Below the pieces are notes generated by a model. That model was not told the origin of the DNA and did not search any database. It saw only the letters and a list, made by a program, of their open reading frames with translations. Shown in pieces: positions 563 to 4,961 of a DNA stretch of 4,961 nucleotides. Source of the DNA: a virus (lineage: Duplodnaviria; Heunggongvirae; Uroviricota; Caudoviricetes). Numbering within the stretch: the stretch's first letter is position 1; every line of letters starts with the position of its first letter. Position numbers and translations under genes: made by a program. The stretch lies in the IMG/VR virus record IMGVR_UViG_2698536450_000012, positions 1 to 4,961 of that record; one strand, given 5' to 3'.

Positions 563-1120
563 TCAACAATGAATTTTTAGCAATTGCTCCACAGTCATAT
601 TTTTAATTGCGCTCCGGTTTACAAGAGTCCATCCTTGTTTCTCCAGATAAAACCGGAAGGTATCCAGGGTGCAGACCATTGCGCCGTCAGGAACGGTTTC
701 AGTGAATTTGATATTGCCGTGTTCGTCGAGACGGATAACTAGGGTGCGTCCGTCCCCGTGAATCATTTTGTCGGGAGACGGGGCGTTATTCTGGCGCAGT
801 TCTTCCTCCATGCGATCGAACTCAGCGATGTAGGCTTCTTTGAAAGTTGCGGCTTTTTTACCTGTGAACCCCATCACCAGGAAAACGAAGCCGTTTTTGG
901 TGATTTGGTACATGGGGCGTTTTTCGCCTTTGGCGTCGGTGTAGGTAACGGGCGTAAAATTGCGCTCGTTAAAATCTTCAGAGCATTCTAGCGTTTCAAT
1001 TTTGCGCAGAACGTCCTTGTGCATTTTGCGGAAGAACTCTGCAACCGCAACAGACGTAGTGACAGCGCGACCATTTTCGATGGTTACGTCAGGGTGAGAA
1101 AGGGTAGGGATAGTAGCCAT
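563..1120 (-). CDS. rha: Phage regulatory protein, Rha family (N-terminal Rha domain MATIPTLSHPDVTIENGRAVTTSVAVAEFFRKMHKDVLRKIETLE...KGEKRPMYQITKNGFVFLVMGFTGKKAATFKEAYIAEFDRMEEEL, plus a C-terminal domain of unknown function)
   Basis: Recognised from memory as the Rha (Phage_pRha) family. Start placed at the ATG at 1120..1118, which has an AAGAGG Shine-Dalgarno (reverse complement of 1129..1134) 8 nt upstream. The ORF track extends the frame to 1417, but that extension contains a terminator-like hairpin with a U-tract and has no domain-like sequence. Confidence 0.8.
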   Translation of the reverse strand: MATIPTLSHPDVTIENGRAVTTSVAVAEFFRKMHKDVLRKIETLECSEDFNERNFTPVTYTDAKGEKRPMYQITKNGFVFLVMGFTGKKAATFKEAYIAEFDRMEEELRQNNAPSPDKMIHGDGRTLVIRLDEHGNIKFTETVPDGAMVCTLDTFRFYLEKQGWTLVNRSAIKNMTVEQLLKIHC

Positions 1121-1150
1121 AATGGCAGCCTCTTGGTTGAGTATTAATAA

Positions 1151-1189
1151 CTCACCACCAAGGTTTTCCACGACCATAAGGGTGGTGAG
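1151..1189 (-). promoter_or_regulatory. Perfect 9-bp inverted repeat (CTCACCACC / GGTGGTGAG) with a 21-nt loop, in the rha 5' leader about 20 nt upstream of the Shine-Dalgarno
   Basis: Read directly: 1151..1159 is the reverse complement of 1181..1189. As RNA on the minus strand the loop contains GUGGAAAAC. Confidence 0.4.
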
Positions 1190-1288
1190 GCGTACAGGGG
1201 TGGAAATACCGGTCAACCAAGAATCCGGCCAGCCTTGCAGCTGCCCTGCACGCCCCACCATAATCTGAATGTGGCTGTGCTTGACGCA

Positions 1289-1312
1289 TAAAAAAACCGC
1301 CTGAGCGCGGTT
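1289..1312 (-). terminator. Candidate intrinsic terminator on the minus strand (stem aaccgc/gcgguu, 6-nt loop, then U7)
   Basis: On the plus strand an A-run (1290..1296) precedes the hairpin at 1295..1312, so on the minus strand the hairpin is followed by UUUUUUU. The stem is short (4 GC and 2 AU pairs), so strength is moderate. Confidence 0.5.
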
Positions 1313-1372
1313 ATGCGCTTGATTGAATTCCGGGTTTCCACGCCCGGCACCCGTTTTATGAGGTGCAGGTGC

Positions 1373-1401
1373 ACTATAATTCCACCCGTTCTGGTTTTCA
1401 A
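1373..1401 (-). promoter_or_regulatory. Candidate sigma70 promoter on the minus strand: -35 TTGAAA (1401..1396), 17-bp spacer, -10 TATAGT (1378..1373); predicted start near 1366
   Basis: Both hexamers match consensus at 5 of 6 positions with the optimal 17-bp spacer. It lies about 75 nt upstream of the terminator at 1289..1312. Confidence 0.4.
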
Positions 1402-1904
1402 TAGCTACATTCAACATTTTCTCTTACCTTTCATCACCGAAGTGAACTTTGTTGATGCGGTGCCTGGTGCCTCCAGGTGACGTTAACCAGTTAACAATTA
1501 ACGCCGGATACAGAGAATCCACCCATAACACTGTTTTTGGTTTTAACTGTTCCGCGTGCGCTGAGCCGCATTCACCGCATCACAAAATTCACTTTAAAAA
1601 GGGCGGCAGAGCAGCCACGGAGTAAAACTGATACTGCCAAACGTCACCAGAAAATTGATAACAGAGGGCGTTGCAGCGGGGTTGTCACTTAAGCGTATGG
1701 TCAACCTGACAACCCGGTGTCCTCAACGGGGAAGGAATAACCCCGCCATACTTACCGCCGCGCCATTTCGCGGAGTGCCACAACCGGAAGCGCACGGTCG
1801 ACGAAAATTTAACGACAGGCTATCTATGAACCAGCAACCTCGCCGTGCACTTTCGCGTTATGCTCTGACTTTTCAGAGAAATATCCTTTCAGTAAACTGT
1901 CAGT

Positions 1905-2718: not shown

Positions 2719-2747
2719 ATTGTTCTCTCTAGGTGAACAAAAGTCAA
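2719..2747 (-). promoter_or_regulatory. Candidate leftward early promoter (pL-like) on the minus strand: -35 TTGACT (2747..2742), 17-bp spacer, -10 AACAAT (2724..2719), overlapped by an operator-like inverted repeat TGTTC-N9-GAACA (2721..2739)
   Basis: Same hexamers, spacer length and embedded inverted repeat as the rightward promoter at 3249..3277. It sits immediately downstream of the repressor terminator. Confidence 0.5.
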
Positions 2748-2761
2748 CATGATGAATACGC

Positions 2762-2791
2762 AAAAAAAAAAAAAAACCGCCTTGCGGCGGT
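2762..2791 (-). terminator. Strong intrinsic terminator of the repressor transcript (stem accgcc/ggcggu, GCAA tetraloop, then U15)
   Basis: On the plus strand A15 (2762..2776) is followed by ccgcc ttgc ggcgg (2777..2790). On the minus strand this is a GC hairpin followed by 15 U, about 25 nt downstream of the repressor stop (2813). Confidence 0.8.
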
Positions 2792-2812: not shown

Positions 2813-3202
2813 TTATTTTTGTCGTGTTATTGGGTCGACGTATTCTGAGTAAAATTCGGTCAGTTTTTGGAGTCGCATTTGAAAAGCTGCCAGCATATTT
2901 CTACGTTCTACAGGTGGCAGGTTTCTGTAAACATCAAGCAGGGCCTTCTCGTCATCATCAAGCGCCTCTCTATTTGTCTCTTCTTTCCCTGTCAGTAGCC
3001 AAGAAAGGGAAACGTTTGTGGCTTCTGCAATTTTGGCTGCGGAATCTTTACTGATTGTTCCTCTTTTTTTCCATGCGTTGACTGATGAACGACCTACACC
3101 AGCGATACGCGCTAAATCTGAACCACTTAAATGATGCTGTTGAGAGATCGTATCTAACCTTTCTGCTAGCGGGGTGTCGTATTGCTTTTTTCTCATGTCC
3201 AT
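2813..3202 (-). CDS. Prophage repressor, XRE-type helix-turn-helix (cI / RacR / DicA-like), 129 aa
   Basis: Helix-turn-helix motif LSGSDLARIAGVGRSSVNAWKKRG. Divergent from the Cro-like gene. A consensus TATAAT ends 7 nt before the ATG, which predicts a leaderless transcript with no Shine-Dalgarno, as for lambda cI from pRM. Confidence 0.85.
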   Translation of the reverse strand: MDMRKKQYDTPLAERLDTISQQHHLSGSDLARIAGVGRSSVNAWKKRGTISKDSAAKIAEATNVSLSWLLTGKEETNREALDDDEKALLDVYRNLPPVERRNMLAAFQMRLQKLTEFYSEYVDPITRQK

Positions 3203-3208
3203 TTGGCA

Positions 3209-3236
3209 ATTATAACCGTTCAGTGAACACTAACAA
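3209..3236 (-). promoter_or_regulatory. Candidate repressor-maintenance promoter (pRM-like) on the minus strand: -35 TTGTTA (3236..3231), 16-bp spacer, -10 TATAAT (3214..3209); the spacer contains the palindrome GTTCAgTGAAC (3218..3228)
   Basis: Hexamers and spacing read directly. The predicted transcription start coincides with the A of the repressor ATG at 3202. Confidence 0.5.
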
Positions 3237-3248
3237 TTCCTCGAGGTG

Positions 3249-3277
3249 TTGACTTGTGTTCGTTTTAAGTGAACAAT
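3249..3277 (+). promoter_or_regulatory. Candidate rightward early promoter (pR-like): -35 TTGACT (3249..3254), 17-bp spacer, -10 AACAAT (3272..3277), overlapped by an operator-like inverted repeat TGTTC-N9-GAACA (3257..3275)
   Basis: Back-to-back with the pRM-like promoter. A GGAGG Shine-Dalgarno (3297..3301) precedes the ATG at 3306. Confidence 0.5.
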
Positions 3278-3305
3278 CGTTGTGGTTAGTTGAACTGGAG
3301 GTTGT

Positions 3306-3581
3306 ATGACAGCATTGGACAAAGCAATAAAGATTGCTGGTGGTATTCGTCCGCTAGGGCGTGCAATAGGGGCTTGGCCATCTCAAATACACAAATGGGC
3401 AAATGAATACAATGGTCGAGTGCCGACGGGAGAACGGGTTCGTCAAATTTATATTGCAACTGGGGTTACTCCTCATGAATTGCGACCAGATTTATACCCG
3501 AATCCAACTGACGGGTTGCCTGCTGGAGATAAGGCTAACACACCAAATACACCGGAGTTGATTCATGAAAATCAAGCATGA
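3306..3581 (+). CDS. ydaS: Cro-like DNA-binding regulator, YdaS family, 91 aa
   Basis: Divergent from the repressor, with a GGAGG Shine-Dalgarno. The motif GVTPHELRPDLYP is typical of the YdaS / Cro-type family as recalled from memory. Confidence 0.8.
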   Translation: MTALDKAIKIAGGIRPLGRAIGAWPSQIHKWANEYNGRVPTGERVRQIYIATGVTPHELRPDLYPNPTDGLPAGDKANTPNTPELIHENQA

Positions 3582-3990
3582 ACACATCCGCATGGCGATG
3601 AATGCCTGGGCGCGTCCTGATGGCGAAAAAGTTCCAGCAGCTGGAATAACCCAGGCTTATTTTGAGTTGGGTATGACGTTTCCTGAACTGTATGACGACA
3701 GCCATCCGGAAGCCCTGGCTCGCAATACACAGAAAATTTTCCGCTGGGTAGAGAAAGACACCCCTGATGCAGTTGAAAAAATTCAGGCGTTGTTACCAGC
3801 GATCGAAAAGGCAATGCCACCTTTGCTGGTGGCCAGAATGCGCAGCCACAGTTCAGCTTATTTTCGGGAGCTGGTGGAGACGCGGGAGCGACTGGTGAGA
3901 GACGCTGATGATTTTGTCGCAGTGGCAATCGCCGGTTTCAATCAGATGAACCGTGGTGGCCCGGCAGGAAATGCTGTGGCAGTACATTGA
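3565..3990 (+). CDS. ydaT: YdaT-family regulator, 141 aa, in the cII-equivalent position
   Basis: The N-terminus MKIKHEHI and the C-terminal ...AVAVH match what I recall of Rac YdaT. The start overlaps the ydaS-like stop by 17 nt. GGAG lies 8 nt upstream. Confidence 0.8.
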   Translation: MKIKHEHIRMAMNAWARPDGEKVPAAGITQAYFELGMTFPELYDDSHPEALARNTQKIFRWVEKDTPDAVEKIQALLPAIEKAMPPLLVARMRSHSSAYFRELVETRERLVRDADDFVAVAIAGFNQMNRGGPAGNAVAVH

Positions 3991-4061: not shown

Positions 4062-4961
4062 ATGGCTAACGCCTGGCTCAGATTATGGCATGACATGCCA
4101 AATGACCCTAAGTGGCGAACAATTGCCAGGGTGTCAGGGCAGCCAATTGCAACAGTGATGGCAGTGTATATCCACCTCCTGGTGAGCGCGTCACGAAATG
4201 TCACGCGAGGTCACATTGATGTCACGACAGAAGATTTGGCAAGTGCGCTCGACGTGACAGAAGAGGTAATTGATTCAATTTTGCAGACGATGCAGGGGCG
4301 GGTACTTGATGGTGATTTAATCACTGGATGGGAAAAACGCCAGGTGCTGAAAGAGGACAACGGCAATATTTCGCAAACCGCAAAATCTCCTGCAGAGCGC
4401 AAGAGGGCGCAGCGAGAGAGGGAAAGAAAGCGGGAACAAAATGGCGATTGTCACGGCGCGTCACGAAATGTCACGCACATGTCACGACGAGTCACGACAG
4501 ATAAAGATACAGATAAAGATACAGATCAAGAAGATCAAAACACTATGGTCCATGGCGTAAAAAACGCCACGAACCAGGCAGGGGATGTTCAGACCGTCAA
4601 TCCTGGTCAGCCAGCAGGCACGACACCGGAAGCCGATTCAGCGTATGCGCTGAAAGCCGATTCGGGCGCTGTGCAGCAGGTGATGACCGCAAGGCCGGAG
4701 CAATCACACCAACTGCAGCAGCCTGAAGCCGATTCCGCCATTCAGCGGGAAGCCGATCGGGTAGTCCCGGAAAGCACCGGGCAGTCTGTGGGACGAGTGG
4801 ATTATCCGGATGTGTTCGAACAGGTCTGGCGGGAATACCCGTTGCGTGCCGGGGCAAACCCGAAGAAATCCGCTTTCAGTGCCTGGAAGGCCAGATTGCG
4901 CGAGGGGGTGCCACCAGAGACCATGCTGGATGGTGTGAGGCGTTACGCGAGATACCTGGCG
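4062..4961 (+). CDS. Phage replication initiation / replisome-organizer-type protein, 3' end outside the window (300 codons open to the edge); YdaU / lambda-O-equivalent position; family assignment unverified
   Basis: ATG at 4062 with an AGAGGTGA Shine-Dalgarno. Translated by hand with no stop to position 4961 (MANAWLRLWHDMPNDPKWRTIARVSGQPIATVMAVYIHLL...). Two iteron clusters lie inside the gene. It is absent from the ORF track because it has no stop. Confidence 0.8.
   Translation, partial: MANAWLRLWHDMPNDPKWRTIARVSGQPIATVMAVYIHLLVSASRNVTRGHIDVTTEDLASALDVTEEVIDSILQTMQGRVLDGDLITGWEKRQVLKEDNGNISQTAKSPAERKRAQRERERKREQNGDCHGASRNVTHMSRRVTTDKDTDKDTDQEDQNTMVHGVKNATNQAGDVQTVNPGQPAGTTPEADSAYALKADSGAVQQVMTARPEQSHQLQQPEADSAIQREADRVVPESTGQSVGRVDYPDVFEQVWREYPLRAGANPKKSAFSAWKARLREGVPPETMLDGVRRYARYLA
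4190..4230. repeat. Iteron cluster 1: four GTCACG/GTCACA repeats at 10-11 bp spacing (4190, 4200, 4210, 4221)
   Basis: Read directly: gtcacgaaat gtcacgcgag gtcacattgat gtcacgacag. The spacing is helically phased. Confidence 0.6.
4450..4541. repeat. Iteron cluster 2: five GTCACG repeats (4450, 4460, 4470, 4481, 4491), then an A-rich tract with a tandem 12-bp repeat CAGATAAAGATA x2 (4498..4521) and two GATC sites (4524, 4533); candidate phage origin of replication
   Basis: Read directly. The 18-mer GCGTCACGAAATGTCACG is shared between the two clusters (4187..4204 and 4457..4474). Iterons followed by an AT-rich segment inside the initiator gene mirror the lambda origin within gene O. Confidence 0.6.

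Follow-up and report, generated by a model that had tools for sequence, protein, structure and literature searches.

Genes and layout of the locus

The window, meaning the whole 4,961-nt stretch of DNA analysed here, is part of an E. coli lambdoid prophage, and a protein identical to its repressor is on record from E. coli. In plus-strand order it carries a pL-like promoter, a terminator, the repressor gene, the interval 3200-3306, a YdaS-family gene and a YdaT-family gene. The genes and the signals next to them are listed here in window coordinates.

2761..2791, minus strand: intrinsic terminator for the repressor mRNA, made up of a GC stem (2776-2791) with a 15-T run after it
2813..3202, minus strand: repressor gene, 129 aa (MDMRKKQY...), with a CI-type helix-turn-helix (HTH) and a short helical C-terminal part
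3297..3301, plus strand: Shine-Dalgarno (SD) sequence of ydaS, GGAGG; GGAGGTTGTATG is identical to the lambda cro sequence
3306..3581, plus strand: Cro-like YdaS-family gene, Pfam YdaS_toxin at 7e-10 (PF15943/PF06254 pair with YdaT)
3558..3575, unstranded: perfect YdaT operator TTGATTcatgaaAATCAA at the ydaS/ydaT junction, in a pRE-like region; motif TTGATT-N6-AATCAA
3565..3990, plus strand: CII-like YdaT gene, Pfam YdaT_toxin, 89% identical to YdaT of a CP-933P-like locus

Pfam recognises only HTH families in the 129-aa repressor, Phage_CI_repr (1.7e-12) and HTH_3, and finds no S24 peptidase (LexA-like autocleavage) domain; induction therefore presumably proceeds through an antirepressor instead of RecA-mediated cleavage. 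Eighty-three homologs of the repressor were found, and DicA aligns with it over the full length as a distant homolog (25% identity, E 3e-6). In the family alignment the protein fits the DicA-like short repressors of about 125-135 aa, which combine a CI-type HTH with a conserved C-terminal helical segment (LPP.E..NML-type), and by sequence it groups with DicA-like proteins. Solved structures match it at the HTH level only, namely the 186 CI N-terminal domain and the 434 repressor. Homology to PaaR2 or RacR was not found, BLASTP returning short HTH-level similarity only (E 0.002-0.37).

On the other side of the interval, the YdaS-family protein matches the solved Cro proteins 3bd1 and 5w8y, and the succession of a YdaS-family Cro analog and a YdaT-family CII analog (PF15943, PF06254) is that of a YdaS-YdaT immunity region. 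The site at 3558-3575 is the sole perfect YdaT-operator match, and looser matches occur at chance level. The same motif at the same location has been footprinted in CP-933P (PMC9986795), and the primer used for cloning PRE933P matches 3576-3595. Given the YdaT identity, the perfect site and the primer match, a CII/pRE-type establishment pathway, yielding a long-leadered repressor transcript, likely exists alongside pRM.

Of the 5426 complete E. coli genomes searched, 82 carry the 621-bp immunity core, with 87-99% identity and in each case on the chromosome, and the carriers include many O157:H7 strains; Sakai, EDL933 and K-12 are absent among the 60 of these 82 carriers that were listed. In strain EC12, the core is flanked by an integrase/exonuclease/kil arm and by a replication and lysis arm. 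A megablast search of the phage collection found no DNA-level match to the core and nothing covering the repressor region, and tblastn alone reveals phage homologs of the repressor, which share 38-60% identity where most of the protein aligns and 36-48% where only part of it does. Among relatives, variation in the stem of the repressor terminator looks compensatory.

With 3200-3306 as its OR/pRM/pR control region, this E. coli lambdoid prophage belongs to the YdaS-YdaT type, together with CP-933P, Rac and Qin. Its immunity specificity is new and so far uncharacterised; the switch itself is of this already known kind.

Divergent promoters and strong operators

The repressor gene and the cro-like gene diverge from back-to-back promoters that, at the sequence level, are overlapped by shared operators, and a further promoter with its operator lies beyond the repressor gene.

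2719..2747, minus strand: pL-like promoter TTGACT-17-AACAAT, with the same hexamers as pR
2721..2739, unstranded: OL, perfect TGTTC-N9-GAACA, within the pL-like promoter
3200..3202, minus strand: first repressor ATG and predicted transcription start (leaderless 5'-AUGGACAUG), the A being the 7th nucleotide after the -10 hexamer
3203..3208, minus strand: six-nucleotide stretch TGCCAA between the -10 hexamer and the ATG, conserved in length and partly in sequence
3209..3214, minus strand: -10 hexamer TATAAT of the pRM-like promoter, unchanged in every E. coli variant as well as in Salmonella, Klebsiella and Lelliottia
3231..3236, minus strand: -35 hexamer TTGTTA of the pRM-like promoter, separated by a 16-nt spacer; only TTG (3234-3236) is invariant across genera
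3249..3277, plus strand: pR-like promoter TTGACT-17-AACAAT for ydaS-ydaT; TGTTGAC and GTGAACAAT are invariant across genera
3257..3275, unstranded: OR1, perfect TGTTC-N9-GAACA, spanning the spacer and the -10 hexamer of pR

The pL and pR regions mirror one another as inverted repeat I1. In their fuller form, OR1 and OL read TGTTCnn-N5-GTGAACA, with a perfect GTGAACA on the right of the plus strand in both, and this half-site was found in five copies against 0.81 expected. The half-sites of OR1 are invariant and its spacer is variable in all relatives. Relatives in Salmonella (repressor 81% identical), Klebsiella (77%) and Lelliottia (77%) have the same operators, placed at -73 (OR1) and about +463 (OL) relative to the ATG, plus an identical TGTTCAC block at -27. 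The pL operon also carries a Rha-family gene preceded by C4 and isrK RNAs.

Near pRM and pR, the operators found are OR1 and one weak site only. A search for half-sites in 3230-3256 revealed no OR2 equivalent, so the tripartite arrangement of OR was not recovered here; the stretch 3237-3246, where OR2 would be, lacks a half-site, differs across genera and varies more than any other part of the region. Since OR2 is absent, pRM is probably constitutive and repressible rather than activated, and its near-consensus sequence (10/12 matches) makes a need for activation by the repressor unlikely. Of two other candidate operators, CCTCGAGG (3239-3246), the only symmetry in 3230-3256, is not conserved even among E. 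coli variants and was rejected, and a possible third operator downstream of pR at 3278-3296 (direct repeat D3 with 2698-2712) has a variable right half.

A predicted leaderless repressor transcript

The minus strand upstream of the repressor reads TTGTTA(3236-3231)-16 nt-TATAAT(3214-3209)-TGCCAA(3208-3203)-ATG(3202-3200)-GAC-ATG. The first-pass annotation, made from the sequence alone, had placed a consensus TATAAT with its end 7 nt before the repressor ATG, and correctly so: the last T lies seven positions from the A, with six nucleotides between them. Within those six, 3203-3205 vary and 3206-3208 are invariant in four genera. TATAAT occurs twice in total on the two strands of the window, and the score of 10/12 comes from a consensus scan of the pRM-like promoter. 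An in-frame TAG at 3232-3230 makes the ATG at 3202 the first possible start of the reading frame. The same annotation had noted the absence of a Shine-Dalgarno sequence, which the pairing energies confirm, as the 20 upstream nucleotides reach -2.4 kcal/mol with the anti-SD sequence against -10.0 for ydaS. Additionally, the first 60 nt of the predicted repressor mRNA are no more structured than shuffled sequence.

Comparative analysis extends this arrangement to the repressor family. Loci encoding 24 repressor relatives (29-100% identity) were collected from Escherichia, Salmonella, Klebsiella, Lelliottia, Enterobacter, Cronobacter, Raoultella, Erwinia, Serratia, Chimaeribacter, Sodalis, Phlomobacter, Xenorhabdus and Pantoea, and a hexamer was counted as -10-like if it had A at position 2, T at position 6 and at least 4/6 matches to TATAAT. 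Such a hexamer (TATAAT, TATACT, TAAAAT, TACAAT, TAAACT or TAATAT) precedes the first ATG by 6-7 nt in 21-22 of the 24 relatives, which span the full identity range and about 12 genera; the count rises from 21 to 22 when TAATAT in one locus (L014) is taken as -10-like. The spacing is N6 in 18-19 loci and N7 in 3-4, and as background, 4.3% of all ATG triplets in the 24 loci carry such a hexamer at that distance. The nominal binomial P is 4e-26, a figure that overstates the significance because the loci are related by descent. All 24 starts are ATG, this having been a selection criterion, and in about a third of the loci the start was picked by alignment to the family N-terminus and was not the sole candidate. 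The six intervening bases differ between loci, so it is the distance that is conserved. Two Pantoea loci with a GGGAG leader are the exceptions, and the trait is therefore not universal.

Similar spacings are found upstream of other repressors. In the lambdoid phages SEN34 and mEp237, the sequence upstream of the homolog, read by eye, is TATTCT-N6-ATG and TACACT-N6-ATG, respectively. A CP-933P-like repressor shows TAAAAT-N6-ATG; at the same N6 distance, RacR has only the weak hexamer GAATAT.

The lambda cI mRNA transcribed from pRM is leaderless, as experiments have shown. Further precedents come from one distant homolog of the repressor, DicA, and from two analogs, RacR and PaaR2. In K-12, dRNA-seq mapped five leaderless mRNAs, and three of them, dicA, racR and ymfK, all encode prophage regulators (PMC4681348). 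PaaR2 of CP-933P is leaderless according to 5' RACE and N-terminal sequencing (PMC8630535). For racR, which has three promoters, the strongest, PracR3, gives a leaderless transcript mapped by primer extension, and the further promoters lie upstream (PMC9638921). The region upstream of dicA was inspected for a clean N6 arrangement, and the result was not clear-cut. A locus considered as paaR2 (L033) encodes a product starting MMSALE, not MQKKE, and was set aside as a paralogous paaR-like locus that serves as an analog only.

The first-pass prediction of a leaderless repressor mRNA holds up by comparison, through the family spacing, the lambda-like geometry and the DicA, RacR and PaaR2 precedents. 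Leaderless expression is thus a prediction strongly supported by comparison and precedent, and the maintenance transcript very probably starts at 3202 or 1-2 nt upstream, where two A's lie. Such a start at pRM would be a well-supported but ordinary further example of an arrangement known from other prophages, adding an uncharacterised immunity type to the few enterobacterial prophage repressors for which a leaderless mRNA has been predicted or demonstrated. The arrangement of -10 hexamer, N6 and AUG is conserved across the DicA-like repressor family, and this family-wide spacing supports the idea that lysogeny-maintenance repressors have been selected for leaderless translation.

A different account would have the repressor made mainly from a leadered transcript, begun at an upstream start or at a YdaT-activated pRE-like promoter, and translated from the second ATG (3196-3194), with TATAAT being incidental. 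It draws on PGAP, which in many genomes, O157 strains included, calls this ATG and a 127-aa product, on the extra upstream promoters of racR (PMC9638921) and on the perfect YdaT site at 3558-3575. However, the second ATG also lacks a Shine-Dalgarno sequence (-3.0 kcal/mol against -2.4 for the first), and the scan turned up no further promoter-like site in the intergenic region on the minus strand. Codon 2 changes only synonymously across lineages, between GAC and GAT, and the distance from the -10 hexamer to the first ATG is kept family-wide, whether the protein begins MDMRKK or MKKK. The constant spacing with or without the MD extension, together with codon 2, favours the first ATG over the PGAP choice. 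A mainly leadered origin is very unlikely. For the leaderless reading, the practical consequence is a corrected repressor start in many genomes, giving 129 aa and not 127 aa.

The pRM spacer: a palindrome and a candidate weak operator

Three readings overlap in and around the spacer of pRM.

3211..3229, unstranded: proposed weak OR3-like operator TATAA-N9-GAACA, in which one half is a perfect GTGAACA and the other, in the -10 hexamer, is poor
3217..3235, unstranded: alternative register, E. coli only, CGTTC-N9-TAACA, with 8/10 matches, spanning the spacer and the -35 hexamer
3218..3228, unstranded: palindrome GTTCAgTGAAC (GTTCAGTGAAC), inside the pRM spacer at 3215-3230

The second palindrome reported by the first-pass annotation is indeed present in the pRM spacer. 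Bare palindromes of this form, with two 5-nt arms and a loop of 0-3, occur at 0.36 per 100 nt in the 4,961-nt window, and what sets this one apart is solely that the operator half-site GTGAACA forms its right arm. That arm belongs to the conserved block CAGTGAACAC (3221-3230), which is invariant in four genera together with GCAATTATAACC (3206-3217), TTG (3234-3236), TGTTGAC (3247-3253) and both OR1 half-sites. The left-arm bases 3218-3220 are E. coli-specific and are replaced by TCT, ACT or TCG in other genera; the conserved unit is therefore one consensus half-site and not the 11-bp symmetry. Within seven E. coli-lineage sequences, the full palindrome is invariant, and 3198-3240 has 2 variable columns of 43 compared with 19 of 65 to its right (Fisher P = 0.001). 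That every E. coli variant retains the palindrome would agree with a lineage-specific function.

The half-site fits a repressor operator in the N9 register, at 3211-3229. This site lies at the same offset in four genera (-27 from the ATG), and its centre is 46 bp from that of OR1, compared with 47 bp between OR1 and OR3 of lambda. Its -10-side half matches only 2/5 positions, so binding there is a guess from position. Relatives with TTAGC-N5-GCTAA (DicA-type) operators have a 9/10 operator at the same place, overlapping the -10 hexamer, which supports the positional assignment. On sequence and analogy, we lean towards 3211-3229 being an OR3 analog for negative autoregulation and Cro-type shut-off, where binding would occlude pRM. 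The first-pass annotation had suggested either a low-affinity repressor site or a distinct YdaS site at the palindrome. The former fits better, as the N9 register 3211-3229 and not as the 11-bp element itself.

The YdaS proposal, in its full form, makes the palindrome a separate dedicated site with abutting half-sites for YdaS or another factor, so that YdaS and the repressor would recognise different sequences within pRM. Its appeal lies in a perfect palindrome built of the operator pentamer, unchanged in the seven E. coli-lineage sequences despite variation in the OR1 spacer and in the flanks, and in the finding that CP-933P YdaS binds the PRM side first (PMC8630535). Yet three genera that keep the repressor HTH, the operators and a nearly identical N-terminal HTH of YdaS with the recognition helix PSQIHKW, namely Salmonella, Klebsiella and Lelliottia, have lost the left arm (the Salmonella-type spacer, for example, reads TCTCAGTGAAC). 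Moreover, with CAGTGAAC conserved, three chance nucleotides complete the palindrome, roughly 1 in 64; the window-wide frequency of such palindromes also weakens the case, and, at about 10% divergence, three unchanged positions are not significant. A dedicated YdaS site at the palindrome is thus decidedly unlikely.

The left arm could instead matter as part of the register 3217-3235, which would then be the functional pRM operator of E. coli and may alternate with 3211-3229. This is the only other intergenic site within 2 mismatches of the operator consensus, and it would account for the left arm being kept in E. coli. Sites with at most 2 mismatches are, however, common by chance (7 found, 2.75 expected), the right half matches only 4/7 of the extended half-site GTGAACA, and both half-sites decay in Salmonella, Klebsiella and Lelliottia, whereas 3211-3229 keeps its position and a perfect half. 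We regard this register as an unlikely operator. It is improbable, too, that the 25 bp of the E. coli pRM spacer hold everything at once, with two 19-bp repressor registers that exclude each other and lie 6 bp apart, plus an 11-bp dedicated, high-affinity YdaS site. If that were true, the repressor and YdaS would read different pRM sequences, in contrast to the shared operators of lambda.

A proposed switch and its relation to known systems

Taken as a whole, an account with a leaderless pRM, strong OR1 and OL, a weak OR3-like site at 3211-3229, a by-product palindrome and no OR2 is probable on sequence and analogy. TTGTTA-16-TATAAT would start transcription at the A of the first ATG (3202), or 1-2 nt from it. 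The resulting repressor mRNA, having neither leader nor Shine-Dalgarno sequence, would be translated from its 5'-terminal AUG to give MDMRKK.... Repressor dimers would block pR from the strong 19-bp OR1 and pL from OL. In the predicted occupancy hierarchy, the weak 3211-3229 site, which overlaps pRM, would most likely serve negative autoregulation by the repressor and shut-off by the Cro-like YdaS. The perfect 11-bp symmetry would then be a lineage-specific by-product of the operator spacer and no separate site.

The lambda-like divergent switch described in the first-pass annotation stands, since the pRM/pR geometry resembles that of lambda despite the missing OR2, the missing S24 domain and the near-consensus pRM. 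Both systems have divergent repressor and cro genes and an N6 spacing before the repressor start, TAGATT-TAACGT-ATG in lambda and TATAAT-TGCCAA-ATG here. With the pR start taken in both as the 7th base after the pR -10 hexamer, the predicted pRM and pR starts are 83 positions apart in lambda and 82 here. The pR -35 context TGTTGACT and the cro Shine-Dalgarno sequence are identical in the two. As in lambda, a strong operator covers pR and a weaker one, here a candidate, covers the pRM -10 hexamer and spacer; OL/pL lies beyond the repressor gene, and a CII-type activator site lies at the start of the next gene. Unlike lambda, the locus has a variable stretch (3237-3246) in place of OR2, a pRM near consensus and a 129-aa repressor without the autocleavage domain. 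Its OL is single and 536 bp away, and its operators are 19-bp TGTTC-N9-GAACA sites. The region can be read as a simple two-operator variant of lambda OR.

CP-933P of O157:H7 (PMC8630535, PMC9986795) shares the gene order, in which YdaS takes the part of Cro and YdaT that of CII, as well as the identical TTGATT-N6-AATCAA at the ydaS/ydaT junction and PL hexamers identical to those of PR. Compared with the proteins of the CP-933P-like locus, YdaT is 89% identical and YdaS only 49%. Unlike CP-933P, the locus has a repressor that is unrelated to PaaR2 beyond the HTH and carries no paaA2-parE2 toxin-antitoxin pair behind it. The operators differ as well, those of CP-933P being GTTTAGTAA-type repeats in four IRs. 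Rac differs in having a repressor, RacR, that is non-homologous beyond the HTH and is expressed from three promoters. Qin resembles the locus in its order, dicA followed by ydfA-ydfB-ydfC-DicF, with the same downstream order here. Its DicA operators, TGTTAG-N7-CTAACA, have the same frame as the operators described above, and the half-sites differ, TTCAC here and TTAGC in Qin.

Repressor start codon and its relatives

RefSeq/PGAP annotates the repressor gene as 129 aa, starting at ATG1 (3202-3200), in some genomes and as 127 aa, starting at ATG2 (3196-3194), in others, on DNA that is identical there (3194-3202; loci L002, L003 and L005). Comparison among relatives favours ATG1 rather than ATG2 as the repressor start.

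Phage mEp237 (L037, 414-1293) carries two repressor homologs in tandem, gp39 and gp38. The annotated start of gp39 is probably mis-called, because it leaves just 13 nt to the cro-like gene; further in than this start lies a TACACT-N6-ATG. Pantoea loci L019 and L020 are the only repressor-family members that lack this arrangement of a -10-like hexamer, six nucleotides and ATG. In both, GGGAG precedes ATGATG by about 15 nt, and a reversion to a leadered repressor mRNA is possible in these loci.

Promoters and operators

The promoter-operator units of pL (2719-2749) and pR (3247-3277) are inverted copies, 536 bp apart, that share TTGACT and AACAAT hexamers. Only a single OL, the predicted repressor operator within pL, was found. 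Should the repressor form oligomers, the 536-bp spacing would permit looping between OL and OR.

Two short stretches match lambda (L036, 790-845) exactly: GGAGGTTGTATG, from the Shine-Dalgarno sequence to the ydaS start (3297-3308), is found at lambda cro, and TGTTGACT, the -35 context of pR here (3247-3254), at lambda pR. Despite these identities, the proteins are unrelated.

A site for the CII analog YdaT lies at the ydaS-ydaT junction:

3558-3575, YdaT operator TTGATTcatgaaAATCAA

This copy is perfect and covers the ydaS stop and the ydaT start. Nucleotides 3576-3595 match the PRE933P cloning primer of PMC8630535. Together, the perfect operator and the primer match suggest a leftward, YdaT-activated pRE-like promoter near 3558-3575. 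If so, the repressor transcript from it would be leadered and antisense to ydaS.

The pL operon

The leftward operon contains predicted RNA genes and a ydfC-like reading frame:

1178-1265, minus strand, C4 antisense RNA (Rfam), within ORF 563..1417
1290-1366, minus strand, isrK (Rfam), within ORF 563..1417
1601-1652, minus strand, DicF sRNA gene (67 bits)
1994-2212, ydfC-like ORF, upstream of DicF

The same DNA (1178-1366, minus strand) scores both as the C4 and isrK RNAs and as the Pfam Phage_ASH part of the 284-aa ORF 563..1417, whose Rha domain begins only at residue 120. The Rha/antirepressor gene probably has its true start near MATIPTL, downstream of C4 and isrK, an order like that of a P1 immI-like module. 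What scores as "Ash" in the ORF may represent RNA genes, not protein. The left arm is Qin-like, resembling ydfA-ydfB-ydfC-DicF of Qin, since the pL operon has DicF downstream of the ydfC-like ORF.

Repeats in the replisome-organizer gene

Tandem repeats of 10-12 nt occupy 4449-4531, with five copies of TGTCACGACA and three of ACAGATAAAGAT. They lie inside the replisome-organizer gene, which continues past the end of the window, and are probably origin iterons.
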